Shown: positions 401 through 13,468 of the stretch, in pieces
Position numbering within the stretch: position 1 is the first letter of the stretch
Layout of the letters: each line of letters begins with the position of its first letter
Assembly: GCA_019634095.1 (NCBI GenBank)
Contig: JAHQVY010000357.1
Coordinates: forward strand, 1 to 13,634
Source: Cellvibrionaceae bacterium
GTDB taxonomy: Bacteria > Pseudomonadota > Gammaproteobacteria > Pseudomonadales > Cellvibrionaceae
DNA: 13,634 nt
Reading direction: 5' to 3'
Notes under the pieces: model-generated
What the model saw: the letters and a program-made list of their open reading frames with translations, nothing else
Databases searched by the model: none
Told to the model about the DNA's origin: nothing
Made by a program: the position numbers and the translations under genes

Positions 401-1162
401 ATGGCTAAAACACTGCTAGATCTAAATAATATTTCTAAGTCATTTTTCACTGAGGATATCGAAACCAAAGCGTTGAAAAATATTGACCTGGTGGTAAGCC
501 AAGGTGAGTATGTTTCCCTGACTGGCCCCTCTGGTTGCGGTAAGTCGACATTGTTATCTATCCTCGGCTTGCTCGATGAAGCGAGCGCTGGAGTGTATAA
601 ACTGTGCGATATTGACGTGACAAATTTATCGCGAGATCAACGAGCTGCGGTGCGCAATAGAGAAATTGGTTTTATTTTCCAGTCGTTTAATCTTATCAGT
701 GATTTAACAGTGGAAGAAAATGTGATGTTGCCTCTCACTTACAACAAGGCGCACCAGAATATCGATATGAAAAACCTTGCTAAGGAAATGCTCGCCAAGG
801 TGAATATGGGGCACCGCATCAAGCACTATCCCGCTCAGCTTTCCGGAGGGCAGCAGCAGCGTGTCGCAATTGCGCGCGCGCTGGTCAATCAGCCGTCGTT
901 GATTCTGGCGGATGAACCCACAGGAAACTTAGATAGCGAGAACGCGACGGCTGTACTCGAGATTCTCGACCAGCTTCATCGCGATGGGACAACTATTTGT
1001 ATGGTCACCCATGATTCGCGCTGTGTTGAACGGGTGAATCGTGCGGTTTACATCCTCGACGGTGAAATTTGCCCATCGCCGCCATCGCCGCCATTGTTGC
1101 CAAACACAGGCGCAGCACCCAAGCCGGCAAAGGCTTGCAAACAAGCTGCAACCTTAGATTGA
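401..1162 (+). CDS. ABC transporter ATP-binding protein, MacB/LolD/YbbA-type NBD, with a Pro-rich C-terminal tail
   Basis: Walker A GPSGCGKST, Q-loop, ABC signature LSGGQQQRVAIARAL, Walker B LILADEPTGNLD, H-loop VTHD. A weak AGGA lies 9 nt upstream of the ATG. The last ~28 aa (PSPPSPPLLPNTGAAPKPAKACKQAATLD) are low-complexity and contain a 9-bp tandem duplication. The TGA stop (1160-1162) is 11 nt before the permease start. Confidence 0.92.
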   Translation: MAKTLLDLNNISKSFFTEDIETKALKNIDLVVSQGEYVSLTGPSGCGKSTLLSILGLLDEASAGVYKLCDIDVTNLSRDQRAAVRNREIGFIFQSFNLISDLTVEENVMLPLTYNKAHQNIDMKNLAKEMLAKVNMGHRIKHYPAQLSGGQQQRVAIARALVNQPSLILADEPTGNLDSENATAVLEILDQLHRDGTTICMVTHDSRCVERVNRAVYILDGEICPSPPSPPLLPNTGAAPKPAKACKQAATLD

Positions 1163-1173
1163 GGCGGAGGATA

Positions 1174-3597
1174 ATGATGACGCACTTAATTTTAGATATG
1201 GCTTATTCGCTGCGCTTGTTAAGAAAATCACCCAGCTTTACTGCCTTGTGTGTATTGGTGTTGGCCGGTGGTTTGGCGGTGAGTTTATTTACTTTCGCTT
1301 TTTTGTATACCTTAACTAACAAGCCCCTGCCACTGCCGGATCAAAGTTCGCTGTACCGCGCTTCGCGGGATTGGTATGGCGAAGCCTTTGGTGAAAGCCG
1401 CTATTTGCCCGCCTACGAGGCCGCAGCCATTCGCCAGCAGGCCACGGTATTCAAAGAGCACGGTATCTGGCAAAACAAAACTGTGTACCTGTCTCAAGGT
1501 GAAAATAATTTGGTGGTGTCGGCGGTGCGCAGCACAGCGAATATTTTCGATATCAGTCGCAGCGGGCCATTGCTAGGGCGTTTGTTGCATCCGCGCGACA
1601 GCCAGCCCGACCAAACGCCGGTGGCGGTGATTAGCTATGCCATCTGGCAAAGCCAGTTTGCCGGCAATGACGAGGTGATTGGCAAACAGATTTATATTAA
1701 CGACGTCGCCACAGAAATTGTTGGTGTGATGCCAAAGGGCTACCGTTTTCCGATTTCCCACGATCTTTGGTTGCCCATTTCCCAGCAGCTACTCCACCCA
1801 CTCAGCACTCAGCGCGAAAAAGTGGAGTTGTTTGGCCGTTTAAAACCGGGAGTGTCGCGGGAACAGGCGCAGCAGCAGGTTTTGTCCCTGGCCGAGCAGT
1901 CATTTTCCCAGCGTGCAGAAACCTGGCCAGGCGTGGAGTTGATTCGAGCCAAGGTGGATATTTTTCAGCGTTTTGATGTAAGCACCGAGATGAAAATATT
2001 TTCCTACGCCATGAACATGCTTGCGTTTTTTATTCTGGTTTTGGCGGCAATTAATGTTGGCAATTTATTGTTTGTGCGGGCCATTCAACGCAATAGAGAG
2101 TCGGCCATTCGCATTGCCCTAGGCGCCCCGCAATGGCGCTTGATTAGTCAGTTGATGTGGGAGGGGGTAATAATTACTGTGCTCGGCACAAGCATCGCGG
2201 TGTTTATTTCCAGTGTGCTGCTCCATGCCGTGAATATTTATTTCCGCTCATTAATGAATAACGAACTGGCGTTTTGGTATATCTGGGAAATGGATGTCAC
2301 GGTGTTTAGTGCAGCCCTGGCGTTTGCCGTGGCGACAATTGTCATCGCCTGTTTTTGGCCCGCATTCCGCGCCGCTCGGCAAGATTTTAATAGGGTACTG
2401 CGCGACGGAACCCGCGGCGCCCAAAGCAAACACGCTGGGTTTATGTCGCGCCTTTTAGTCACCCTGCAAATTTCGGCCATTTCCATCATTATGGTGCTCG
2501 GTGCGGTCATCTCCACCAAGGTGCACAATCTTACCGACATGGACCTTGGTTACGATGTGAAAGGAATCAGTTTTTCGATTGTTGAATTGCCCGAGAGCGC
2601 CTACCCCGAAAATACCGACAAATCCTTGTTTTTCGAGCGGCTGCAGCGCGCGCTGTTTAACAGCCAGGCGTTTTCCGGTGCGACGGTGCGCTTTAATCAC
2701 AGCCAATTGCCGGTTGCTGTTGGTGGCGTGGAATATCAGCGCGACGCCGATAAACCCAAGGTACAGGTGTTTAGCATGATTGGTAGCAGCGAATTTATGG
2801 GGCCGACGCTTGTGGCAGGGCGTGAATTAGATAGTCGAGATGGCAGCGGTCGGGCGCCCGCAGTGCTAGTCAGTAGCTCCATGGCCAAGCGTTATTGGCC
2901 CAACGATTCACCCATAGACAAACAAATTGAAGTGAGCTTGCAAGCTAAAGTATTGCGGCTAAATATTGTTGGCGTGGTATCTAACACTACAAATAATCCC
3001 TTCCATAAAAAAGAAAGTTATCACGAAATTTACCTGTCTGGCCTTCAGTTTCCAATGCAGCGGGGCACGGTGTTCTTTGAAAAGACCTCTGCGGGAGTAC
3101 TGGTGGAAGATAATTTTTTTCGCGCCATCAACGCCATCGACAGTAAGCTGGATATTCTCACCATTGAAGACTGGGAGCTGGAAGCTGACGCGATTGGCAA
3201 GATGACGGTGACTTTCCGCGATACCATTGTGATTTGCGGCGTATTTTCACTGATTCTGGCTATGAGCGGTATTTACGGAATCACCGCATTTTCGGTGGAA
3301 AAGCGCTCCCAGGAGGTGGGGGTGAGGCGCGCCCTGGGGGCCACCGACCGTAAAATCATGGGGCTGTTTGTAAGGCAGGGGAGTCGTCAGTTGATTATTG
3401 GTCTGCTGTGTGGGTGCCTGATTTCGGGGCTGATGATGTTTGGCCTCTCCAGCATTATGGCCATTCCCTCTGTGGTTTACCTGGTGATTTACGCGTCGGT
3501 GATAGTCTCTTTGACGTTGATTGTGTTGGCTGCGGTGATTATTCCCGCGCGCCGGGCGGTTAATTTGCTGCCAGCTGTTGCACTGCGTTACGAATAG
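1174..3597 (+). CDS. ABC transporter permease with duplicated FtsX/MacB-type domains (YbbP-like, 807 aa)
   Basis: A GGAGG RBS (1166-1170) precedes ATGATG at 1174. The layout is an N-terminal TM helix, a large periplasmic domain, three TM helices, then a second periplasmic domain and a C-terminal four-helix FtsX bundle, which is the ~800-aa YbbP architecture. The ORF-track start at 1069 is an in-frame upstream extension without an RBS, so 1174 was chosen. Confidence 0.88.
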   Translation: MMTHLILDMAYSLRLLRKSPSFTALCVLVLAGGLAVSLFTFAFLYTLTNKPLPLPDQSSLYRASRDWYGEAFGESRYLPAYEAAAIRQQATVFKEHGIWQNKTVYLSQGENNLVVSAVRSTANIFDISRSGPLLGRLLHPRDSQPDQTPVAVISYAIWQSQFAGNDEVIGKQIYINDVATEIVGVMPKGYRFPISHDLWLPISQQLLHPLSTQREKVELFGRLKPGVSREQAQQQVLSLAEQSFSQRAETWPGVELIRAKVDIFQRFDVSTEMKIFSYAMNMLAFFILVLAAINVGNLLFVRAIQRNRESAIRIALGAPQWRLISQLMWEGVIITVLGTSIAVFISSVLLHAVNIYFRSLMNNELAFWYIWEMDVTVFSAALAFAVATIVIACFWPAFRAARQDFNRVLRDGTRGAQSKHAGFMSRLLVTLQISAISIIMVLGAVISTKVHNLTDMDLGYDVKGISFSIVELPESAYPENTDKSLFFERLQRALFNSQAFSGATVRFNHSQLPVAVGGVEYQRDADKPKVQVFSMIGSSEFMGPTLVAGRELDSRDGSGRAPAVLVSSSMAKRYWPNDSPIDKQIEVSLQAKVLRLNIVGVVSNTTNNPFHKKESYHEIYLSGLQFPMQRGTVFFEKTSAGVLVEDNFFRAINAIDSKLDILTIEDWELEADAIGKMTVTFRDTIVICGVFSLILAMSGIYGITAFSVEKRSQEVGVRRALGATDRKIMGLFVRQGSRQLIIGLLCGCLISGLMMFGLSSIMAIPSVVYLVIYASVIVSLTLIVLAAVIIPARRAVNLLPAVALRYE

Positions 3598-3682: not shown

Positions 3683-3724
3683 TCTATAAAAATTACAGGT
3701 AATATTACCTGTAATTTTTATAGA
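3683..3724. promoter_or_regulatory. 42-bp perfect palindrome TCTATAAAAATTACAGGTAAT|ATTACCTGTAATTTTTATAGA; candidate operator overlapping a promoter, and/or bidirectional terminator hairpin
   Basis: Read directly. Both 21-nt arms are exact reverse complements with no spacer. It ends 33 bp before the ATG of the first gene of the PspA/flotillin block. It contains TATAAA/TTTATA -10-like hexamers, and a possible -35 TTGATC at 3679-3684. The ACAGGTA/TACCTGT stem, flanked by A- and T-runs, could also terminate the upstream permease transcript. Confidence 0.6.
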
Positions 3725-3756: not shown

Positions 3757-4410
3757 ATGAACAAGAAAACATCCGCACATTATCAGCGAGAGTATCGACG
3801 CCGGTTGCGTGAGCAGGGCTTGGTAAAGAAAGAAGTTTGGATAAACCAAGACCACGCGAAAACCCTGCATCGGCTCGAGTTGCAACTTCGTCAACCCGGC
3901 AGCGAATCGTTGCCTGCTAGCAAAGGCGCCGAGCTGACGCAGGCGGGCCTCCTCGCTACCTGGACCACGCAGAGTCTGTTTGACGCCCTCGCCGCGCAGC
4001 CAGATTTTAGCGCCAATAACACCTTGGAGCTTATCGATGATGCCCAGCCCTCCATACACCTTGATATGAAGCAGTATGGCGACCTGCCGGTTTATTTGGC
4101 GGTGTGTGGCGAGCAAATTATTGTAGAGTCGCTGCTGTGGCCCCTCAGCGAGGTTAAGAACTCGGCCCAATTTAATGAGATGCTTTTAAAAACGCACAAG
4201 TTTATACCGCTTTCCAGCGTCGGTTTGGAAACCTTTGAAAACGGCGCCACTTACTATTATATGTTCGGTGCCCTCAGTGCCGGCTCGTTGCTGGCGAATA
4301 TTATTTTTGAAATTGACTGCCTGGGGAGCAACGTTATTCAAGCCACGCAGGCTTTCTCCGAGTTTTTGAAAAGTGCCATACCGCTCGATACCGATGTGGC
4401 AGCGCCGTGA
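3757..4410 (+). CDS. DUF2170-family protein (E. coli YjfI-like) with a ~80-aa N-terminal basic, ribbon-helix-helix-like extension
   Basis: Residues ~85-217 (…MKQYGDLPVYLAVCGEQIIVESLLWPLS…KFIPLSSVGLETFENGATYYYMFGALSAGSLLANIIFEI…) match the YjfI/DUF2170 pattern as I remember it (…MNDYGDLQINI…MPLSSVGIS…YYIVFGALS…). The N-terminus is KTSAHYQREYRRRLREQG, followed by KEVWINQDHAKTLHRL, which is a beta-strand plus helix of RHH type. It is the first ATG after an in-frame stop. It has no clear SD sequence, which is a weakness. Confidence 0.7.
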   Translation: MNKKTSAHYQREYRRRLREQGLVKKEVWINQDHAKTLHRLELQLRQPGSESLPASKGAELTQAGLLATWTTQSLFDALAAQPDFSANNTLELIDDAQPSIHLDMKQYGDLPVYLAVCGEQIIVESLLWPLSEVKNSAQFNEMLLKTHKFIPLSSVGLETFENGATYYYMFGALSAGSLLANIIFEIDCLGSNVIQATQAFSEFLKSAIPLDTDVAAP

Positions 4411-5117
4411 GTAATTGGGCAAAAGTATTTAGCTTACTCAATGCACACCGGGTGAGTTACGCAGAAAATGTCGAGGAAAACCCGGCCTTTGCGTTGATCA
4501 GCGCCGAGCTTAAGCAATCGCTTAGCCAGTTGAGCACAATGCAACAGGCGTTTAAGGCATTGCAATCGCAGCAGAAATTGGCGCGAGCCAAAGTCAGTCA
4601 ACTGGCCGCAAGTATCGAAGAATACGAAGGGTACGCGGCCAGCGCGCTTAATAAGCAGCAGTCCGAATTAGCGTTAGAAGTGGCGGCGAAAATCGCCGAA
4701 TTCGAAAGCCAACGGAAAACCGAGCAAAACGCCATACAGCAGCGACAAGGCGATTTAAGCTTGCTGCAGCAGAGCATGCCTCTGTGCGAGCAGCATCACA
4801 AACGCTTAAAGCATCAGCTGGACACCCTCAAAGCGGTCGTCAATGTGTTACACGCGCAAGCCACCGTCGCGGTTCGCGAAGGGGGGGAGGTGCCTAAGCA
4901 CCGCACCGCTTTAGATGCCCTAAAAAAAATCCGCGACAAAAATGCGGCCGAGCAGGCCCAGTTGCAAGCGGCGAGCGATTTAGCGGCCGATGTGGATGCG
5001 CAGTCGCTGCGGGAAAAGCTAAAGGCGGCGGGCATTATTGATAGTGGCCACAGCGCCGAAACGGTGCTGCAACGCATAGCGGCGCAAGTGAATGCCGCGA
5101 GTGAACCTGGCAATTAA
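4407..5117 (+). CDS. PspA/IM30-family protein (phage-shock protein A / Vipp1 / ESCRT-III superfamily; YjfJ-like)
   Basis: Its GTG start overlaps the upstream TGA (GTGA), so the two genes are translationally coupled. The N-terminus is NWAKVFSLLNAHRVSYAENVEENPAFALISAELKQSL, which resembles PspA [35 protein letters not shown]. The remainder is a ~230-aa Q/A/E/L-rich coiled coil typical of the family. Confidence 0.75.
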   Translation: MSNWAKVFSLLNAHRVSYAENVEENPAFALISAELKQSLSQLSTMQQAFKALQSQQKLARAKVSQLAASIEEYEGYAASALNKQQSELALEVAAKIAEFESQRKTEQNAIQQRQGDLSLLQQSMPLCEQHHKRLKHQLDTLKAVVNVLHAQATVAVREGGEVPKHRTALDALKKIRDKNAAEQAQLQAASDLAADVDAQSLREKLKAAGIIDSGHSAETVLQRIAAQVNAASEPGN

Positions 5118-5175: not shown

Positions 5176-5820
5176 ATGGAAACATTTTTAGCAACCATTA
5201 CTGCGTTTCCAACTGTAATTTTTACCAGTTTATTTATTTTTTGTATTTTTTATTGGCTAATGGCACTTATCGGTTTGGTGGATTTAGACGTTCCCGGTGC
5301 GGAGGTGCCTGATGCCGCTGGTGATAGTATGAGTAGCCTCAGCGCTTTTACCGGGTTAATGGTAAAGCTCGGCCTGCAAGGGGTGCCGTTTCCGCTAACG
5401 CTGTCGCTTATTACTGTAATGGGGTGGGCCTGTTGTTATTTTTCATGTTTATTGTTGCTGCCATTTATTGCTACGGGGCTTACTAAATATTTATTGGGTA
5501 TTCCGGTTTTTTTGCTGTCATTTTTTGCCGCTATTTATATTACTTCAAAAATCATTAATCCCTTGCGGCCAATGTTTCTCTCTGCGGAGCAAAGAGCCGA
5601 ACACACGCTGATTGGTAAAACTGCCACGGTGCGCAGCTCGCGCGTTGACAGCGAATTTGGCGAGGCTAATGTAAAAAGCGCCGGTGCCGAACTCATTATT
5701 AACGTGCGCGCTTGCCAGGAGGCGGTTTTTGAAAAAGGCGATCGAGTGGTTTTGCTGGAACATGTGAAGCCGGGTAATTTTTACAAAGTTATTTCTGAAG
5801 AAGAATTTAACCTAAACTAA
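5176..5820 (+). CDS. YqiJ-like inner-membrane protein with a C-terminal NfeD-type OB-fold domain (flotillin partner)
   Basis: RBS AAGGGAG with 8-nt spacing. The protein has ~4 N-terminal TM helices, then LIGKTATVRSS…GEANVKSAGAELIINVRAC…FEKGDRVVLLEHVKPGNFYKV, an NfeD/YqiJ-type beta-barrel tail. It sits immediately upstream of an SPFH/flotillin gene, the canonical NfeD-SPFH operon arrangement. Confidence 0.7.
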   Translation: METFLATITAFPTVIFTSLFIFCIFYWLMALIGLVDLDVPGAEVPDAAGDSMSSLSAFTGLMVKLGLQGVPFPLTLSLITVMGWACCYFSCLLLLPFIATGLTKYLLGIPVFLLSFFAAIYITSKIINPLRPMFLSAEQRAEHTLIGKTATVRSSRVDSEFGEANVKSAGAELIINVRACQEAVFEKGDRVVLLEHVKPGNFYKVISEEEFNLN

Positions 5821-5905: not shown

Positions 5906-7876
5906 GTGAACCAAGTTGATTATATTGCTTATTTAACCGGGATTGCTGTAGTAATTGGTGCGCTTTTTGTGATTGCATTGGTTATTATTTCGATATTTAA
6001 AGCGTTTTATGTGAAGGTAGAGCAGGGTGTTGCTTTGATAAAAAATGATACCGGTAATACACCCAAGGTGGTGTTTACCGGCACCTGGATTATTCCGGTG
6101 ATTCATAAAAAAGAGTTGATGCGTATTTCCCTGATTACCATGGAAGTGGACCGTCGCGGCAAAGACGGTTTGATTTGTGCCGACAATATGCGAGCCGATA
6201 TTACCGTGGCTTTTTACTTGCGGGTGAATGAAACCCCCGAGGATGTGCTGCAAGTCGCCAAATCTTTGGGTGCCTCGCGGGCCTCGGATAAAGATGCAGT
6301 GCACGAGTTGTTCAATGCTAAATTTTCTGAAGCCCTAAAAACAGTGGGCAAGCAAATAGAATTTGTAAAGCTATTTGAAGATAGGCAAACCTTCCGTGAA
6401 AAAATTAAACGCGTGATTGGCGATGATCTCAACGGTTATATTCTCGAAGATGTGGCGATTGATTACCTGGAGCAAACACCCAAATCGTCCCTCGATCCCA
6501 GTAATATTCTCGATTCCCAAGGCATTCGCAAAATTACCGAACTTACCGCAACCCAGAATGTGCGCACCAACGAGTTAGAGCGCGATGAAGAGTTGGCGAT
6601 TAAAAAGAAGAATGTCGAAACGACTGAAGCCAGGCTGGAGTTAGAGCGGCAACAAGCCGATGCCGAGGCGCGTCAGCAACGGGAGATTCTGAGTATCCAA
6701 GCCAGAGAGGAAGCCGAAACCAAGCGCATTCAAGAGGAAGAGCGCAAAAAATCTGAGGAAACCGCCATTGCGGTTGAGCAAGAATTGTCGGTGCAGCGAG
6801 AAAATCAACAGCGAGAAGTGGAAGTGGCGCAGCAAAATCGACAGCGCGCAGTGGCCATTGAAGTAGAGCGGGTGAGCAAAGCGCGCGATTTAGAAATTGT
6901 CGCCCGGGAGCGCGAGGTGGAATTGCAGCGAATTGGCGCAGAAAAAGATATCGAAAAAGAGCGCAAAGAAATTGCCAATGTTATTCGCGAGCGGGTAACC
7001 GTGGATAAATCTGTGGCGGTGGAAGAGGAAAAAATTAAAGAAGTGCGCGAAATCTCTGAAGCCGATCGCGCCAAACAAGCCGCAGTATTGCAAGCCGAGG
7101 CCGATGCCGAAACCGAAAAGGTGAAGCAGGTGCAGCAGGCTGAAGCAGAGGGCTTAGCCGCGAAATACCGCGCTGAAGAAGTGGTAACGATGGCTCAAGC
7201 TAAGTTGGAAGCGGCGGCAAAAGATGCCGATGCCAAGAAAAAACTCGCCGAAGGGGTGGAGGCGGAAGAGGCGGCCATGGGAATCGCCGAAGCCAAGGTC
7301 AGAGAAGCCCAGGCGATGGCCTTAGAAAAAGAAGGTTTGGCGGAAGCCAAAGTGATTACTTCCAAAGGCGAAGCCAATGCCACAGCCTTGGAAAAAGCCG
7401 GCACTGCCGAAGCCAATGTGCTGGCATTTAAAGGTGAGGCGCAAGCCAAGGCGGTGCGTGACACCGGGTTATCGGAAGCCGACGTAAGCCGGGAAAAACT
7501 CCGCGCGGAAGCGGAAGGGCTAGTCGAAAAATTCGAGGCGATGAGCAGCTTGAGCGGCGATGCACGCGACCACGAAGAATTTCGTATGTCTTTGGAAACG
7601 GCCTTGGAAGAGGCCTTGGCTTCCATAGAAGCGGGCAAAGTGGTTGCCAAGGAAAATGCCGAAGTACTGGCTACCGCTTTGCAAAATTCCAATATCGATA
7701 TTGTTGGTGGGGAAGAGCATTTCTTTAACAACTTCGCTAAATCTTTGTCGATTGGCAAAGCCATAGATGGTTTGGCAGCAAAGAGCGGCACTGTGGAAGC
7801 CTTGCTGCATAAATTTATGTCGATGCAAAAACCTTCAGAAAAAAGCAATGGTGCGGCTGTTGATCCCCAGCACTAG
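5906..7876 (+). CDS. SPFH/band-7 flotillin-like protein (YqiK-like), 656 aa
   Basis: GTG start with an AAGGAG RBS (5893-5898). It has an N-terminal TM helix and an SPFH domain (KVVFTGTWIIPVIHKKELMRISLITMEV…DNMRADITVAFYLRVNE…). This is followed by ~350 aa of E/A/K/R/Q-rich coiled coil with flotillin-type EA repeats (AEAKV…AEANV…AEADV). The antisense Ala/Ser-rich ORF 7195-7848 is its compositional shadow. Confidence 0.88.
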   Translation: MNQVDYIAYLTGIAVVIGALFVIALVIISIFKAFYVKVEQGVALIKNDTGNTPKVVFTGTWIIPVIHKKELMRISLITMEVDRRGKDGLICADNMRADITVAFYLRVNETPEDVLQVAKSLGASRASDKDAVHELFNAKFSEALKTVGKQIEFVKLFEDRQTFREKIKRVIGDDLNGYILEDVAIDYLEQTPKSSLDPSNILDSQGIRKITELTATQNVRTNELERDEELAIKKKNVETTEARLELERQQADAEARQQREILSIQAREEAETKRIQEEERKKSEETAIAVEQELSVQRENQQREVEVAQQNRQRAVAIEVERVSKARDLEIVAREREVELQRIGAEKDIEKERKEIANVIRERVTVDKSVAVEEEKIKEVREISEADRAKQAAVLQAEADAETEKVKQVQQAEAEGLAAKYRAEEVVTMAQAKLEAAAKDADAKKKLAEGVEAEEAAMGIAEAKVREAQAMALEKEGLAEAKVITSKGEANATALEKAGTAEANVLAFKGEAQAKAVRDTGLSEADVSREKLRAEAEGLVEKFEAMSSLSGDARDHEEFRMSLETALEEALASIEAGKVVAKENAEVLATALQNSNIDIVGGEEHFFNNFAKSLSIGKAIDGLAAKSGTVEALLHKFMSMQKPSEKSNGAAVDPQH

Positions 7877-7952: not shown

Positions 7953-10900
7953 ATGGCTGATACCGCTTCTGAACCACCCAGCTCCATAGACAGCGCTGTT
8001 GCTGAAGGTGGCGCCTACGATGTTTTACGCAGGCGCCTAAACGAGCAGGGCCAAGCATTAAATGAACAAGTTAAGAACATTAATAGCGCCAGACTCGCCG
8101 AGTTTGGCCAGTCTGATCTTAAAATAGCCACCCGCACCCGAGTGCGCACCGCAAATAACTGCGTTGCGCGGGATATTGTGCAAGTGGGTGAGCTGTTGCT
8201 GTTTTCTTACAACGTATTTATTGGCTTAAAAAAAGCCACGCAAATTAACGATGTGTTTGCGGTATTTAAATTGCAGCACAGTGGCGATCAATACGAGTTA
8301 CTGAGTGTCGATATCGATACCAGTTTTCTCAACGATAGTCGCTTTCAGAAAGATTTTAACGAGCTGTACCACTACTATAAAAAAACCCACCTCAAAGAAA
8401 CCCGCGTGGTTAACGGGCTCTTGCTGATGGGCTTTCAAATTAGTGAGCGCGAGGAAGATATCCGCGTATTTCGCTGGTCGCTATCTGCCGATGGCACTGT
8501 GCTTAAGTACATCGATAATCGTGGCGAGCGCGACTTAGTATTGCCGCCAAGCTTTGATTTTGACTGGCAAGAAGCCACCCGAGAAGACACGGTGCAAGGG
8601 CGTTATCCCCATGTGAATATTCTCGATACGCTGTTCGTCGAAACCATTAACGGCGATTTGACCATAAAAATAGAGGACAATACCGAAGATGGTCAGGGCA
8701 TTTACCGAGAGGCGGTGGAGGATGGCAACCAGAGTATTGATGACGCCGCATTTTGCTACGCCCGCTTGGGCGGCTTAATTTTACTTAAGGTGCTGCCTTA
8801 CAAAGAAAAACACTATCGCCATTTTGTTTACAATACCCTCACCGAACAGGTGCTGCGTCTGGATGCGATTGCCAGCTCCTGCGTGCAACTGCCGGAAGAT
8901 CACGGCATTATTTTTCCGGGCGGTTATTTTTTGCAAGATGGTGAGCACAAAGACTTTGCCGGCGATGTTGCCGGTATGCGCTTTCAACGCAAAATTCGCT
9001 CTCCCAATGGCGAGGATTTTCTCTATGTTTTTTATGAGCCGATTAGCGGAACCTCGGTACTGCTAGCTTATAATTTAATAGAAAAACGCCTGCAAAACCC
9101 CTTGTACTGTCACGGTTACGCCCTGGGAGACGATGGCAAAATTGTGATGTTTGTCGCCGAAGAGGAAGCGACGCGGGTGCACCCGATGCAAATTTGGCAA
9201 ACTCCCTTTGTCGGCGATGACTACGCCAGTCAACAGCCGAAGAGCCAGTCCTTTTTTAGCCGTATTGGCAACGCTTCCCTGGTTCGGGGCATATCCGATG
9301 TGTTTAGTATTTGCCGATCGGTAAATAATCAGTCGGTAACATTAAAAGTGTATGAAGAGTTGGCTGGGCAAAGCAAAAAAATCTTTGATAACCATTATTG
9401 GATTGATAGCGATGAATGCCACGGGATTGCCAATTTAATTCGCAGTATTGCGGAAACCGCCGAGTTAACCATCGACGAGTTTCAAAAAGTTCAGAGTATT
9501 CAGCAGCAGTCAAACCAAGCTCTGGAAAAGGCCAAACAACAGCAGCAAGCACTGTTGTTAGAGATACGCAACAGCGCCTGGCAACAAGCCTTAGACTATG
9601 TTAACGCCCTGGGTGACTTAAAAAAGTTACGCGGCCATTTGGCCAGTATTCGCCAGTTGCGCTATATCGATGTGGCGCAAATTGCGCTGCTAGAAAGCGA
9701 ACTGTTGCAAAGCCAAGAGGATTTAAATACGCGTACCGCCGAGTTTCTCAGCCAAGATAAGGCCTTTGAGCCCTACCAAGAAACCATTGCTAATTTGGAT
9801 AAGGCGGTGGAAAAAGCCGACAGCAACATAAGCCTGTCGCCGTTGTTGGAACAAATGGATCAGCTCGCTGAGGGGCTGGATATGTTAACCGATATGATGT
9901 CGACATTGCAGGTGGCGGATGTCAACGTGCGCACCCAGATTATCGATGCCACCACCTCGGTGTATGCCAAGCTTAACCAGAGTCGCGCCCTGGCAAAACA
10001 CAAGCAAAAGAACTTGGGCTCGAAAGAGGCCACGGCGCAATTCGCCGCGCAATTTAAGTTGTTTTCGCAAAGTGTCACCAATGCCTTGGGTTTGGCGGCA
10101 ACGCCCGAAGAGTGCGACAAACAGATGTCGCGCCTGCTGGTGCAGCTTGAAGATTTGGAAAGTCAATTTGGTGAATTTGAACAGTTTCTCGGCGATATTA
10201 TTAGTAAACGCGAAGAAGTGTACGAAAGTTTTGAAGCGCATAAGCAGCAATTACTGGATGCACAACAACGTAAAGCCCAGAATATTTTCGATGCCGCTGA
10301 ACGGGCACTGGCGAGCATTGAACGCCGAGTGAATAAGTTTAAAGACATGGATGCGCTCAACACCTATCTGGGTTCCGATGCCCTGGTATTAAAAATTAAC
10401 GACTTTGTGGAACAGCTTAGGCAACTCAATGCCTCGGTGCAGGCCGAAGATGTGAGCAGTCGTTTAAAAGGGATTAAAGATCAGGGCTTGCGCCTGCTGC
10501 GCGATAAAGCCGAGATCTACGAAGGCGAGGGCAATGTGATTAAGCTGGGCCCGCGGCATAAATTTAGCGTAAATACCCAAAGCTTAGATTTAACCATTAT
10601 TCCACGGCAGCAGGATCTTTACCTACATTTAACGGGCACCGACTTTTTTGAGACTATCAACGATTCCCCCTTAAGTCAGTTAAGCGCGTATTGGGACGTT
10701 GCCCACGAAAGTGAAAGTCCATTTTTTTGCCGTGCAGAGTTTTTGGCGGCCTCGGTTATGCAGCAGGCGCAAACTGCGCCCCAGCAACCCTTAATGGACC
10801 TGCTTAAATCGGAAAACGCCTTGCTGGAGCGGGTGCGAGATTACGCGGCGCCGCGTTACAAAGAAGGTTATACAAAGGGCATACACGATCACGACGCCGC

Positions 10901-13259
10901 AAAAATTCTCAGCCAGCTGATCCCCGCCCTGGCGCAGGCTGGGCATTTAAAGTACGACCCGCTATGTCGGGGCTTGGCCCAGGTTTTTTGGGCAAATATC
11001 GAAAAGATTGCCTCGCAACTGGCGAGTTTGCGACTCAGCTACAGTACCTGGCCGGAACGGGCACAATCGGCGGCAAGGCTGGCGAATTTATTGTCCAGTT
11101 TGGAGGCGAAACAGCAGTTGGCCACAGAAATTGAAGTCGCGCTTACTGAATTTGTTAAACATCACCCAATTGTTGCCACGCCTCTGGTGTTAAAACGCAG
11201 TGCCGCTTACTTGGTGGATGAACTGGGCAGCGAAACTATCCGTTTTGTGTGCAGCAAACATGGAATGGAACTCGCCGAAGCGCTGAAGCGCACCTTAGAC
11301 CAAGACAGCTGGCGCCATTTTCAAGTGGCCTTAGAGCGCATGTTAGGCTGGCCGGCGGAACGCTGGCAGCTGAGTGAAAGTTGGTTTAAAGCCTTAGTTG
11401 AGAATAAGTCGCTGGCTCACCTACAACACTATATTCCCGAAGCGGTGGCAATTGTTAACACCGAAAACCGCTTAGAGCGCGAACTGTCCCAGGCGGAATT
11501 GGAGCTGCACATCGACGGTTTACTCAGCGAGCACTCGCGTATTGAAAACCGCTGCTTGGCTTTGTCTATCGACGATTTTCTTACCCGCTATTCAGACCAT
11601 TGCGGCGAATTTATTCCCGAATATCATCGCTACCAAGCACTGCGCAAACAGACGATTCAAGAAAAGCGCGAACAATTGCGTTTAGAAGAGCTGAAACCGC
11701 GCCCGCTGAGCTCGTTTGTACGCAACCGTTTAATTAATGAAAGCTACCTGCCGATTATTGGCGATAATTTAGCGAAACAAATGGGCACCATTGGCGATAA
11801 CAAGCGCAGCGATTTAATGGGCTTGTTAATGATGATATCGCCGCCGGGTTACGGGAAAACCACTTTGATGGAATATGTGGCCGACCGCTTGGGTTTGATT
11901 TTTATGAAAATCAACTGCCCCAGCCTGGGGCATGATGTGCTGTCGCTCGACCCCAGCCAAGCGCCCAACGCGACGGCGCAACAAGAGTTAAAAAAGCTTA
12001 ATCTGGCGCTGGAAATGGGCAATAACGTAATGTTGTACCTCGATGATATACAGCATACCGACCCAGAATTTCTGCAAAAATTTATCTCTTTGTGTGATGG
12101 CACGCGGCGTATTGAGGGAGTGTGGCAAGGCCAATCGCGCACCTATGATATGCGCGGTAAAAAGTTTTGTGTGGTGATGGCGGGTAACCCCTACACTGAA
12201 TCTGGCGAGCTGTTTAAGGTACCCGATATGTTAGCCAACCGCGCCGACATTTATAATTTGGGGGATATTTTAGGGGGGATGGATGAGCAATTCGCCCTGA
12301 GCTATATCGAAAATAGTTTAACCTCTAACCCGGTGTTGGCGCCGCTGGCCACTCGCGATATGCAAGACACGTATTTATTAATTGCTATGGCCGAGGGCAA
12401 AGAGGTGGCCAGCTCAGATTTAAAACATCAATACAGTGCCGCGGAAGTTAAAGAGATTTGCGATGTGCTGAAAAAACTATTTGTGATTCGCGATATTGTG
12501 CTAAAAATTAATCAGCAGTATATCGAGTCTGCCGCCCAAGATGAGCAGAATCGGGTTGAACCGCCGTTTAAGCTCCAGGGCAGCTACCGCAATATGAATA
12601 AAATGGCAGAGAAGGTAGCGGCGGTGCTGAACGCGGCGGAATTGCAGCAGCTGATTGACGATCATTATCGCGGTGAATCGCAATTGCTGACCCAGGGTTC
12701 TGAAGAAAACCTCCTTAAGTTGGCCGAATTGCGCGGCACTCTTAGCCATGCGCAACAACAACGCTGGCAGGACATTAAACAGCGCTTTGTGCGCAACCAA
12801 AAACTGGGGGGTAAAAATAGCGATGCTGCAAGCCAAGTGGTGGCGCAGCTGGGGGACATTGCCGGTGTTTTAACGGCGTTACAGCACAATATGCAGGCGG
12901 GTGTGGAAAACGCTTTGCATACACCACAGCCCGCCGCGAAAAGCGATACCGACAGCGTTATTCTCGGCGCTTTAGACAAAATTCAAGGCTCTATTAGCGC
13001 ATCGTTGGCGAAGGTGCAAGTGGTGAATCAACCGGTGCCGGGTATGGATAAAGTGCTGCGCGTATTGGCGAACACCCTTGAGCAAAGTATTTTTCCGCTG
13101 ATGAAAAACATGGATAAAAAGTTTGAAATAGATTTGAGTACTCACAATAAAATAAGCGATCTGTTTCAACAGCTTAAAAATTTAGAAATGCAAATAAAAA
13201 TGGAAAACGCAGAGAGTACGGTGAGTGTGAGAGAAAACGTGGTGAAGAATAAACCTTAA
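7953..13259 (+). CDS. Giant (1768 aa) multidomain protein with a C-terminal-third AAA+ ATPase module; uncharacterised family
   Basis: A single uninterrupted ORF, with an AGGAG/AAGGAA RBS region upstream of the ATG. AAA+ motifs: Walker A SPPGYGKTTL (aa ~1296-1305, nt ~11838-11867), Walker B VMLYLDDIQH (aa ~1360-1367), and sensor-1-like VVMAGNP (aa ~1407-1413). The N-terminal ~450 aa are mixed alpha/beta. Residues ~500-850 are Q/L/E-rich coiled coil. Residues ~850-1290 are helical. About 350 aa follow the ATPase. There is no sigma54-activator GAFTGA motif and no N-terminal P-loop. Confidence 0.85.
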   Translation: MADTASEPPSSIDSAVAEGGAYDVLRRRLNEQGQALNEQVKNINSARLAEFGQSDLKIATRTRVRTANNCVARDIVQVGELLLFSYNVFIGLKKATQINDVFAVFKLQHSGDQYELLSVDIDTSFLNDSRFQKDFNELYHYYKKTHLKETRVVNGLLLMGFQISEREEDIRVFRWSLSADGTVLKYIDNRGERDLVLPPSFDFDWQEATREDTVQGRYPHVNILDTLFVETINGDLTIKIEDNTEDGQGIYREAVEDGNQSIDDAAFCYARLGGLILLKVLPYKEKHYRHFVYNTLTEQVLRLDAIASSCVQLPEDHGIIFPGGYFLQDGEHKDFAGDVAGMRFQRKIRSPNGEDFLYVFYEPISGTSVLLAYNLIEKRLQNPLYCHGYALGDDGKIVMFVAEEEATRVHPMQIWQTPFVGDDYASQQPKSQSFFSRIGNASLVRGISDVFSICRSVNNQSVTLKVYEELAGQSKKIFDNHYWIDSDECHGIANLIRSIAETAELTIDEFQKVQSIQQQSNQALEKAKQQQQALLLEIRNSAWQQALDYVNALGDLKKLRGHLASIRQLRYIDVAQIALLESELLQSQEDLNTRTAEFLSQDKAFEPYQETIANLDKAVEKADSNISLSPLLEQMDQLAEGLDMLTDMMSTLQVADVNVRTQIIDATTSVYAKLNQSRALAKHKQKNLGSKEATAQFAAQFKLFSQSVTNALGLAATPEECDKQMSRLLVQLEDLESQFGEFEQFLGDIISKREEVYESFEAHKQQLLDAQQRKAQNIFDAAERALASIERRVNKFKDMDALNTYLGSDALVLKINDFVEQLRQLNASVQAEDVSSRLKGIKDQGLRLLRDKAEIYEGEGNVIKLGPRHKFSVNTQSLDLTIIPRQQDLYLHLTGTDFFETINDSPLSQLSAYWDVAHESESPFFCRAEFLAASVMQQAQTAPQQPLMDLLKSENALLERVRDYAAPRYKEGYTKGIHDHDAAKILSQLIPALAQAGHLKYDPLCRGLAQVFWANIEKIASQLASLRLSYSTWPERAQSAARLANLLSSLEAKQQLATEIEVALTEFVKHHPIVATPLVLKRSAAYLVDELGSETIRFVCSKHGMELAEALKRTLDQDSWRHFQVALERMLGWPAERWQLSESWFKALVENKSLAHLQHYIPEAVAIVNTENRLERELSQAELELHIDGLLSEHSRIENRCLALSIDDFLTRYSDHCGEFIPEYHRYQALRKQTIQEKREQLRLEELKPRPLSSFVRNRLINESYLPIIGDNLAKQMGTIGDNKRSDLMGLLMMISPPGYGKTTLMEYVADRLGLIFMKINCPSLGHDVLSLDPSQAPNATAQQELKKLNLALEMGNNVMLYLDDIQHTDPEFLQKFISLCDGTRRIEGVWQGQSRTYDMRGKKFCVVMAGNPYTESGELFKVPDMLANRADIYNLGDILGGMDEQFALSYIENSLTSNPVLAPLATRDMQDTYLLIAMAEGKEVASSDLKHQYSAAEVKEICDVLKKLFVIRDIVLKINQQYIESAAQDEQNRVEPPFKLQGSYRNMNKMAEKVAAVLNAAELQQLIDDHYRGESQLLTQGSEENLLKLAELRGTLSHAQQQRWQDIKQRFVRNQKLGGKNSDAASQVVAQLGDIAGVLTALQHNMQAGVENALHTPQPAAKSDTDSVILGALDKIQGSISASLAKVQVVNQPVPGMDKVLRVLANTLEQSIFPLMKNMDKKFEIDLSTHNKISDLFQQLKNLEMQIKMENAESTVSVRENVVKNKP

Positions 13260-13274
13260 GGTGAAGCGCACTTA

Positions 13275-13468
13275 ATATATACCCAAAACACTTGTGATTT
13301 AGGTCTCATGAGCACGACCCTAAGTGCCCTTGGCGGTGTTGCTCCGCCTTAAATAGAATGGCTATTCTGCGTTGCCCTATTACCTCACATCCCTGTGAGT
13401 ACCGCCTTGCCAAGAACAAAAATTGGCGCACGCCTAACACCTAAATCTCAAACGCTTTGGGTATATAT
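13275..13468 (+). mobile_element. MITE-like non-coding repeat element, copy B (~194 bp) with perfect 10-bp terminal inverted repeats ATATATACCC...GGGTATATAT
   Basis: About 90% identical to 160-348. The termini 13275-13284 and 13459-13468 are exact reverse complements. The GGCGG-tgttgct-CCGCC hairpin is conserved (13332-13348). In the second hairpin, CTCACA-tccc-TGTGAG (13384-13399), the stem is preserved but the loop differs from copy A. Confidence 0.6.

Follow-up and report, generated by a model that had tools for sequence, protein, structure and literature searches.

The closest described counterpart of the gene considered here lies in Pseudomonas aeruginosa, where reverse-transcription PCR (RT-PCR) joins all six genes of the cluster bacABCDEF, and where BacB to BacF rise together by 6-13 fold in a bacA mutant (PMC10948618). 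The gene bacE (PA3728/PA14_16190) is listed as an ATPase; it is recurrently mutated in cystic-fibrosis isolates, and no biochemistry for a BacE-type ATPase is reported in the literature. Among the genes before it, PA14_16180, at the bacD position, has been named as encoding the SPFH protein PaFlo3, and a short NfeD is assigned to PA14_16160 (PMC13086221). In the passages that deal with such operons, Ravi et al. 2024 (PMC11237479) describe a CesT/Tir(DUF2170)-PspA operon with three other genes, including an ATPase, and abbreviated flotillin-YqiJ-ATPase operons in bacteria and archaea. A gene of this type was found in a Cellvibrionaceae bacterium, on a stretch of 13,634 bp (hereafter the window) that is the whole of contig JAHQVY010000357.1. 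The gene and the four genes that precede it are as follows.

7953-13259, plus strand: complete open reading frame (ORF) of the BacE-type AAA+ protein, ATG start, 1768 amino acids (aa)
5906-7876, plus strand: flotillin-like SPFH protein with an N-terminal transmembrane segment, counterpart of BacD/PaFlo3, conserved upstream partner
5176-5820, plus strand: short NfeD/YqiJ-like membrane protein, counterpart of BacC, conserved partner
4407-5117, plus strand: PspA/IM30 family protein (63.8 bits), counterpart of BacB, facultative partner
3757-4410, plus strand: DUF2170/CesT-Tir-like protein, counterpart of BacA (NCBIfam BacA, PDB 8Q8O)

The window gene is read here, with a probability of about 60%, as an orthologue of BacE, the 'PspA-flotillin-associated' ATPase, and as the energy-using part of a membrane-stress module with a flotillin/NfeD core. 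The linkage of these genes was followed in 568 relatives, taken as one genome per species, from which 80 loci were kept. NfeD-like and flotillin-like counterparts lie directly 5' of the ATPase gene in 68 of the 69 loci with enough flanking sequence. Of 66 loci, 44 have PspA together with DUF2170 and 18 have neither of them, and the linkage of the ATPase to flotillin persists in loci without PspA. The window carries all four upstream genes, in an order that fits the description in the above passages of Ravi et al. (PMC11237479). The six-gene bac layout recurs in P. paraeruginosa (DUF2170, PspA, NfeD-like, flotillin-like, ATPase and a PLDc_2 protein), with an ATPase that is 53% identical over aa 1-1744, which identifies the window ATPase as the bacE counterpart. 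Comparable arrangements extend to three more phyla: 'chaperone Tir', PspA, DUF1449, a hypothetical protein and 'DNA repair ATPase' in Hymenobacter; a hypothetical protein, a 'flotillin family protein' and the ATPase in Streptomyces; and two hypothetical proteins followed by the ATPase in Deinococcus.

All of the conserved neighbours are membrane proteins. Given that the NfeD-like and flotillin-like partners are near-universal and that PspA and DUF2170 are optional, the economical reading is a cytoplasmic AAA+ machine on a flotillin/NfeD scaffold, to which PspA and the DUF2170 chaperone/regulator are a frequent addition and rhomboid and PLD-like proteins are variable downstream additions. The initial annotation of this DNA had proposed an ATP-driven partner of SPFH/PspA assemblies with an unrecognised architecture. 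The first part of this interpretation is favoured by the upstream linkage, by the recurrence of the same order in the three other phyla and by co-transcription and co-regulation in P. aeruginosa; the second part is contradicted by the family data given below.

The same annotation placed a flotillin gene directly upstream of the ATPase. Direct sequence evidence for that identity is weak, with human Flotillin-1 matched at E 0.03 and the NCBIfam FloT model at E 2e-6, far under its cut-off, and the assignment instead follows from the P. paraeruginosa counterpart in the bacD position, which is 64% identical. Neither the flotillin-like nor the NfeD/YqiJ-like protein has any Pfam match, even at E up to 5. 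Both are predicted to be membrane-anchored, and orthologues of these two Pfam-silent proteins are annotated as flotillin, SPFH or DUF1449. The SPFH/NfeD class of the window thus appears to fall outside the current Pfam Band_7 and NfeD models. The DUF2170 protein is more readily placed, scoring 274 bits against NCBIfam BacA (cut-off 300) and matching PDB 8Q8O at E 1.5e-33.

The ATPase ORF is preceded by a Shine-Dalgarno-like ribosome-binding region (GGAG/AAGGA), and its product, in which no transmembrane segment is predicted (maximum 19-residue hydropathy 1.34), is read as a soluble cytoplasmic protein. It is identical to a 1768-aa product held in NCBI nr as a 'DNA repair ATPase'. At least 4,761 homologues were detected in a search of 5.8 billion proteins, and the 120 best range from 1718 to 1882 aa and have an identical Pfam set. 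When 1.84 billion cluster representatives were searched with aa 1240-1768 without a word index, 954 clusters matched at E <=1e-3, among them 385 at E <=1e-30. In every full-length match listed, the AAA module occupies residues ~1200-1650 of a protein of 1600-2036 aa, so that an AAA+ module two-thirds of the way along is the fixed design of one family, with PF12458 at the N-terminus, PF25472 in a stalk and a single AAA module. The family is spread over Pseudomonadota, Bacteroidota, Actinomycetota and Deinococcota, and copies are also found on megaplasmids such as pQBR103. With the Pfam combination DUF3686, DUF7902 and AAA spanning the protein, homologues catalogued in thousands and the operon already published, the window gene is a typical member of a large, mislabelled family, and the claim of novelty is not supported. 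NCBIfam has no model for the 1768-aa protein, and Rfam gave no match anywhere in the window.

The mislabelling concerns the name 'DNA repair ATPase', which is echoed in the Pfam title of DUF3686, 'ATPase involved in DNA repair'. Taken at face value, the database names would make this a DNA repair or chromosome-partitioning ATPase, which is very improbable. Beyond the names themselves, it can draw on weak similarity to RuvB in the stretch around the P-loop: sequence searches of the PDB and searches with a 30-sequence profile gave nothing significant, and their best hits were P-loop stretches of RuvB and Rix7 at E 0.1-0.8. By sequence, the AAA module is strongly diverged, and generic AAA+ proteins fall short of significance against it. 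In SMC, Rad50 and SbcC proteins the Walker motifs are split by a coiled coil and an LSGG motif is present, whereas in the window protein both Walker motifs lie C-terminal to the stalk, 65 residues apart within an AAA+ fold, with no LSGG and no SMC_N, Rad50 or SbcC match, in agreement with the initial exclusion of an SMC protein. No nuclease, helicase or DNA-binding domain was found, and the conserved neighbours are those of a membrane system. A full-text literature search returned no paper that mentions DUF3686 and none that joins 'DNA repair ATPase' with flotillin. The label is therefore without support, as there is no SMC/Rad50-type head, no DNA-related domain or neighbour, and a RuvB similarity confined to the P-loop; the name has probably spread via coiled-coil similarity. 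In no search did the protein fall into a characterised family without a membrane connection, a placement that would have counted against the proposed SPFH/PspA partnership.

Outside the ATPase core, the protein is divided into the following regions.

8058-9398, plus strand: Pfam DUF3686 (PF12458), aa 36-482, E 4.8e-196, 652 bits
9399-10499, plus strand: helical, coiled-coil-like stalk, aa 483-849, from composition and heptad signal
9759-10010, plus strand: Pfam DUF7902 (PF25472), aa 603-686 within the stalk, 88.6 bits, E 3e-25 to 4e-26
10500-11810, plus strand: middle domain, aa 850-1286, small beta unit and then a helical domain predicted with confidence
12543-13256, plus strand: C-terminal helical region, aa 1531-1768, with the EPPFKLQGSYRNMNK stretch, a linker and a terminal patch

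The DUF3686 region is predicted to comprise an N-terminal helix (aa 21-51), followed by ~27 beta-strands (aa 57-416) that would form six to seven four-stranded propeller-like units, with the later helices bundled against the N-terminal one. The stalk is rich in Q, E, L, K, R and A, is poor in proline and glycine, and shows raised heptad periodicity over residues ~500-850. The ~350-aa coiled coil of the initial annotation is borne out in part, by composition and heptad signal, and matches to coiled-coil Pfam families are weak. Separate Pfam scans of the stalk, the middle domain and the C-terminal third detected DUF7902 only, and the middle domain has no structural match. In the AlphaFold2 (AF2) model of aa 850-1768 the predicted local distance difference test (pLDDT) score is 77, rising above 90 in the helical domain at aa ~880-1250; the beta unit and helical domain precede the AAA+ core, which is followed by lid and tail helices. 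The C-terminal region begins with the invariant EPPFKLQGSYRNMNK, continues through a variable linker and closes with a conserved patch at the terminus.

The AAA+ module carries the features that decide whether the protein can be a working ATPase.

11811-12542, plus strand: AAA+ module, alpha/beta core aa 1287-1440 and helical lid to ~aa 1530 (Pfam, AF2 model)
11838-11864, plus strand: Walker A, SPPGYGKTT, aa 1296-1304, with Lys1302, identical in 80/80 loci
12033-12056, plus strand: Walker B, LYLDDIQH, aa 1361-1368, DDIQH in 80/80 loci
12111-12146, plus strand: predicted pre-sensor-1 beta-hairpin, aa 1387-1398, between alpha3 and beta4 (DSSP of the AF2 model)
12177-12191, plus strand: sensor 1, MAGNP, aa 1409-1413, with Asn1412 at the end of beta4, [AS]GNP in 80/80 loci
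12231-12248, plus strand: LANRAD, aa 1427-1432, invariant in 80/80 loci

The Pfam AAA, AAA_22 and AAA_5 models all match aa 1290-1415, each barely over its gathering score, and the predicted fold of core and lid agrees with solved AAA+ structures. The 1768-aa ORF and the Walker A, Walker B and sensor-1-like motifs of the initial annotation were all located at the residues it gave. Walker A follows GxxxxGK[ST], with GYGKTT at aa 1299-1304 and helix alpha1 after Lys1302 in the model. Walker B has four hydrophobic residues before its acidic pair (MLYLDD, to aa 1365) on predicted strand beta3, and [LVI]DDIQH is common to all 80 loci. Asn1412 of sensor 1 comes after a predicted strand at 1405-1409, and the pre-sensor-1 hairpin corresponds to DSSP strands 538-542 and 545-549 of the modelled slice. 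Arg1430 of LANRAD is a candidate arginine finger because its spacing after the sensor-1 Asn-Pro is that of MoxR/MCM-type AAA+ proteins, while Arg1546 (GSYR, within the invariant EPPFKLQGSYRNMNK) is a candidate sensor 2. In the monomer AF2 model, strands beta1 and beta5 and the Arg1430 stretch have pLDDT <50.

At the sequence level, these motif matches are far beyond chance. Homologues from Hymenobacter, Streptomyces and Deinococcus, only ~40-48% identical overall, keep them as well, and the degenerate P-loop named in the initial annotation as a possible refutation did not materialize. Identity to the same homologues is 72-77% in the core (aa 1251-1440) against 21-58% in other regions, which implies a functional nucleotide site under strong purifying selection, and the protein looks like an active ATPase with a catalytically intact AAA+ module. 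Walker B has Asp-Asp in place of the usual Asp-Glu in all 80 loci. The same variant occurs in DnaA (LLIDDIQF), and by analogy it hints at slow or regulated hydrolysis. No aromatic pore-loop motif ([YFW][VIL]G) was found within the module, and the conserved 18-residue loop at aa 1322-1339, where a helix-2 insert was sought in a model of moderate confidence, has no predicted hairpin. The absence of the pore loop, together with the MoxR, dynein and midasin neighbours of the module, points tentatively to a machine that remodels folded assemblies and does not thread chains. The N-terminal propeller and stalk would dock onto flotillin/NfeD (and PspA) assemblies at the inner membrane face, and ATP hydrolysis by the AAA+ oligomer would remodel, disassemble or recycle flotillin/NfeD/PspA polymers. 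During envelope stress the ATPase may act on the flotillin/NfeD scaffold and, in loci that have it, on PspA, by a logic like that of Vps4 on ESCRT-III or of FtsH inside HflK/C cages.

The resemblance to MoxR allows a different division of labour, in which the protein would be a MoxR-like chaperone or maturation ATPase and the flotillin platform would provide location only. Its clients would then be membrane proteins or lipid enzymes other than the SPFH/PspA polymers, with substrates handed, for example, to a linked rhomboid or PLD-like enzyme. The genes downstream of the ATPase bear on this. In 26 of 71 loci the ATPase gene is directly followed by the gene of a rhomboid intramembrane protease (PF01694, ~187 aa), which often overlaps the ATPase stop codon (for instance at 15274-15837 in locus L001, 15244-15810 in L030 and 14907-15479 in L043, with 23 further loci); in 16 of these loci a PLD-like gene comes next. 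Across all 71 loci, a PLD-like gene is found in 27, a ~235-aa protein in 13 and none of the three in 24. The rhomboid and PLD-like genes are therefore patchy beside the near-universal flotillin and NfeD. No VWA domain, the usual companion of MoxR, was detected among the scanned protein-coding genes of the window, and the model shows no helix-2 insert. On this evidence a MoxR-like role is unlikely, although it is an alternative with real weight.

The ~235-aa protein has no Pfam match and replaces rhomboid and PLD in 13 Xanthomonadales loci (Stenotrophomonas, Lysobacter, Luteimonas; for example 15349-16056 in L052). The passages of Ravi et al. 2024 on the operon (PMC11237479) mention the PLD gene and not the rhomboid.

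The PLD-like gene, a common effector type that is sometimes linked here, could also suggest an anti-phage or abortive-infection ATPase, switched on by phage-induced membrane damage. Consistent with such a role, all phage-infected P. aeruginosa samples show raised expression of PA3728-PA3732 (PMC12041424), and the family occurs on megaplasmids, pQBR103 among them. However, induction by phage is also expected of a general phage-shock or envelope-stress system, none of the five operon proteins has a relevant defence-system match in PADLOC, and 50,697 phage records contain zero homologues of the ATPase. Unlike defence islands, the genes keep a stable genomic position and order and are vertically conserved across phyla, and a defence function is considered improbable.

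Upstream of the operon, a candidate regulatory element was identified.

3683-3724, no strand assigned: perfect 42-bp palindrome (21+21, no spacer), candidate operator, ending 33 bp before the bacA-like ATG

The palindrome contains TTACAGGTAA and TTACCTGTAA and, in a difference from the P. aeruginosa bac operon, is a variant of a box, TTACATGTAA. The exact box occurs one to three times at fixed offsets 5' of the DUF2170 gene (~-28, -51 and -75 from its start codon, in loci L002-L080) in 23 of the 46 loci with DUF2170 and PspA, including P. paraeruginosa, against a background of 0.029 per kb, and none of the 22 loci lacking DUF2170 has it 5' of the NfeD-like gene. The box and the palindrome are likely, as judged from sequence, to be the operator of the operon. 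Ahead of its DUF2170 domain, the BacA-like protein carries a basic extension at the N-terminus (aa 1-67, nt 3757-3957, …HYQREYRRRLREQGLVKKEVWINQD…); this extension has a weak Pfam match to the MazE-like antitoxin PF11455 (E 0.039), and the solved BacA structure 8Q8O aligns to aa 68-206 only. Together with the boxes, the MazE-like extension and the overproduction of BacB to BacF in the bacA mutant (PMC10948618) suggest that BacA is a DNA-binding autorepressor recognising TTACATGTAA. The BacA paper makes no mention of the box.

Control of the operon also raises the case of E. coli, where PspA inhibits the AAA+ activator PspF by binding to it. By that precedent the window ATPase would be a PspF-like regulator of operon transcription, restrained by PspA, and a sigma-54 promoter has been proposed for P. 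aeruginosa bacA (PMC10948618). Neither the window nor, with a loose pattern, the 46 loci showed a sigma-54 consensus 5' of the bacA-like gene. PspF-like sigma-54 activators have a GAFTGA loop and a C-terminal helix-turn-helix (HTH) domain, whereas the window protein has no GAFTGA and no Sigma54_activat or HTH match, as the initial annotation had recognized. The flotillin linkage is moreover kept in loci without PspA, and this role is scarcely credible.

The region 401-3597 encodes an ABC ATPase and a MacB-type permease (MacB_PCD and FtsX domains), listed as ORFs 401-1162 and 1069-3597; because these overlap, the permease start is probably further downstream. This MacB-type transporter was considered as a part of the system and rejected, since none of the 80 loci conserves it. 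Two copies of an intergenic element (160-319 and 13277-13436), at least 160 bp in length and 86% identical, bracket the whole gene block. Imperfect inverted arms of 60 nt (13275-13334 and 13409-13468, 70% complementary) are present in the downstream copy, and the element looks like a miniature inverted-repeat transposable element (MITE) or a repetitive extragenic palindromic (REP)-type repeat.

The BacE-type family bears on the question of what energy source serves bacterial flotillin and PspA assemblies, as it is the ATPase found most consistently beside one flotillin/NfeD class, and its systematic mislabelling as 'DNA repair ATPase' is worth correcting. The functional proposal agrees with the comparative evidence and with the published prediction, and the window adds one more typical member.

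Among known systems, P. aeruginosa BacE (PA3728/PA14_16190) is the nearest, with the same Pfam architecture and length and the same upstream order. The window differs in that neither a rhomboid nor a PLD-like (bacF) homologue was found in it, only 375 non-coding bp remaining between the ATPase stop codon and the contig end. The AAA+ module has MoxR, dynein and midasin modules as its named neighbours. However, MoxR proteins such as CbbQ, NorQ and RavA are stand-alone proteins of ~300 aa, while the window module is embedded at aa 1287-1530 of 1768, has Asp-Asp in Walker B and lacks the MoxR features sought above; with respect to the MoxR/AAA_5 helix-2-insert clade, the pre-sensor-1 hairpin is present in the model and the helix-2 hairpin is not.

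PspA/Vipp1 is the bacterial homologue of ESCRT-III, and the logic shared with Vps4 is that of an AAA+ ATPase encoded beside a membrane-remodelling polymer, whose N-terminal non-ATPase domains could recognise that polymer. In contrast to Vps4, the window protein is not of the classical clade, it has a predicted pre-sensor-1 hairpin, no MIT domain match and no aromatic pore loop, and PspA, absent from 18 of 66 loci, is dispensable for the linkage. The mitochondrial SLP2-PARL-YME1L hub combines an SPFH scaffold, an AAA+ enzyme and a rhomboid. Like that hub and like FtsH-HflK/C, the BacE-type loci couple an SPFH scaffold to an AAA+ enzyme, joined in 26 of 71 loci by a rhomboid as well.
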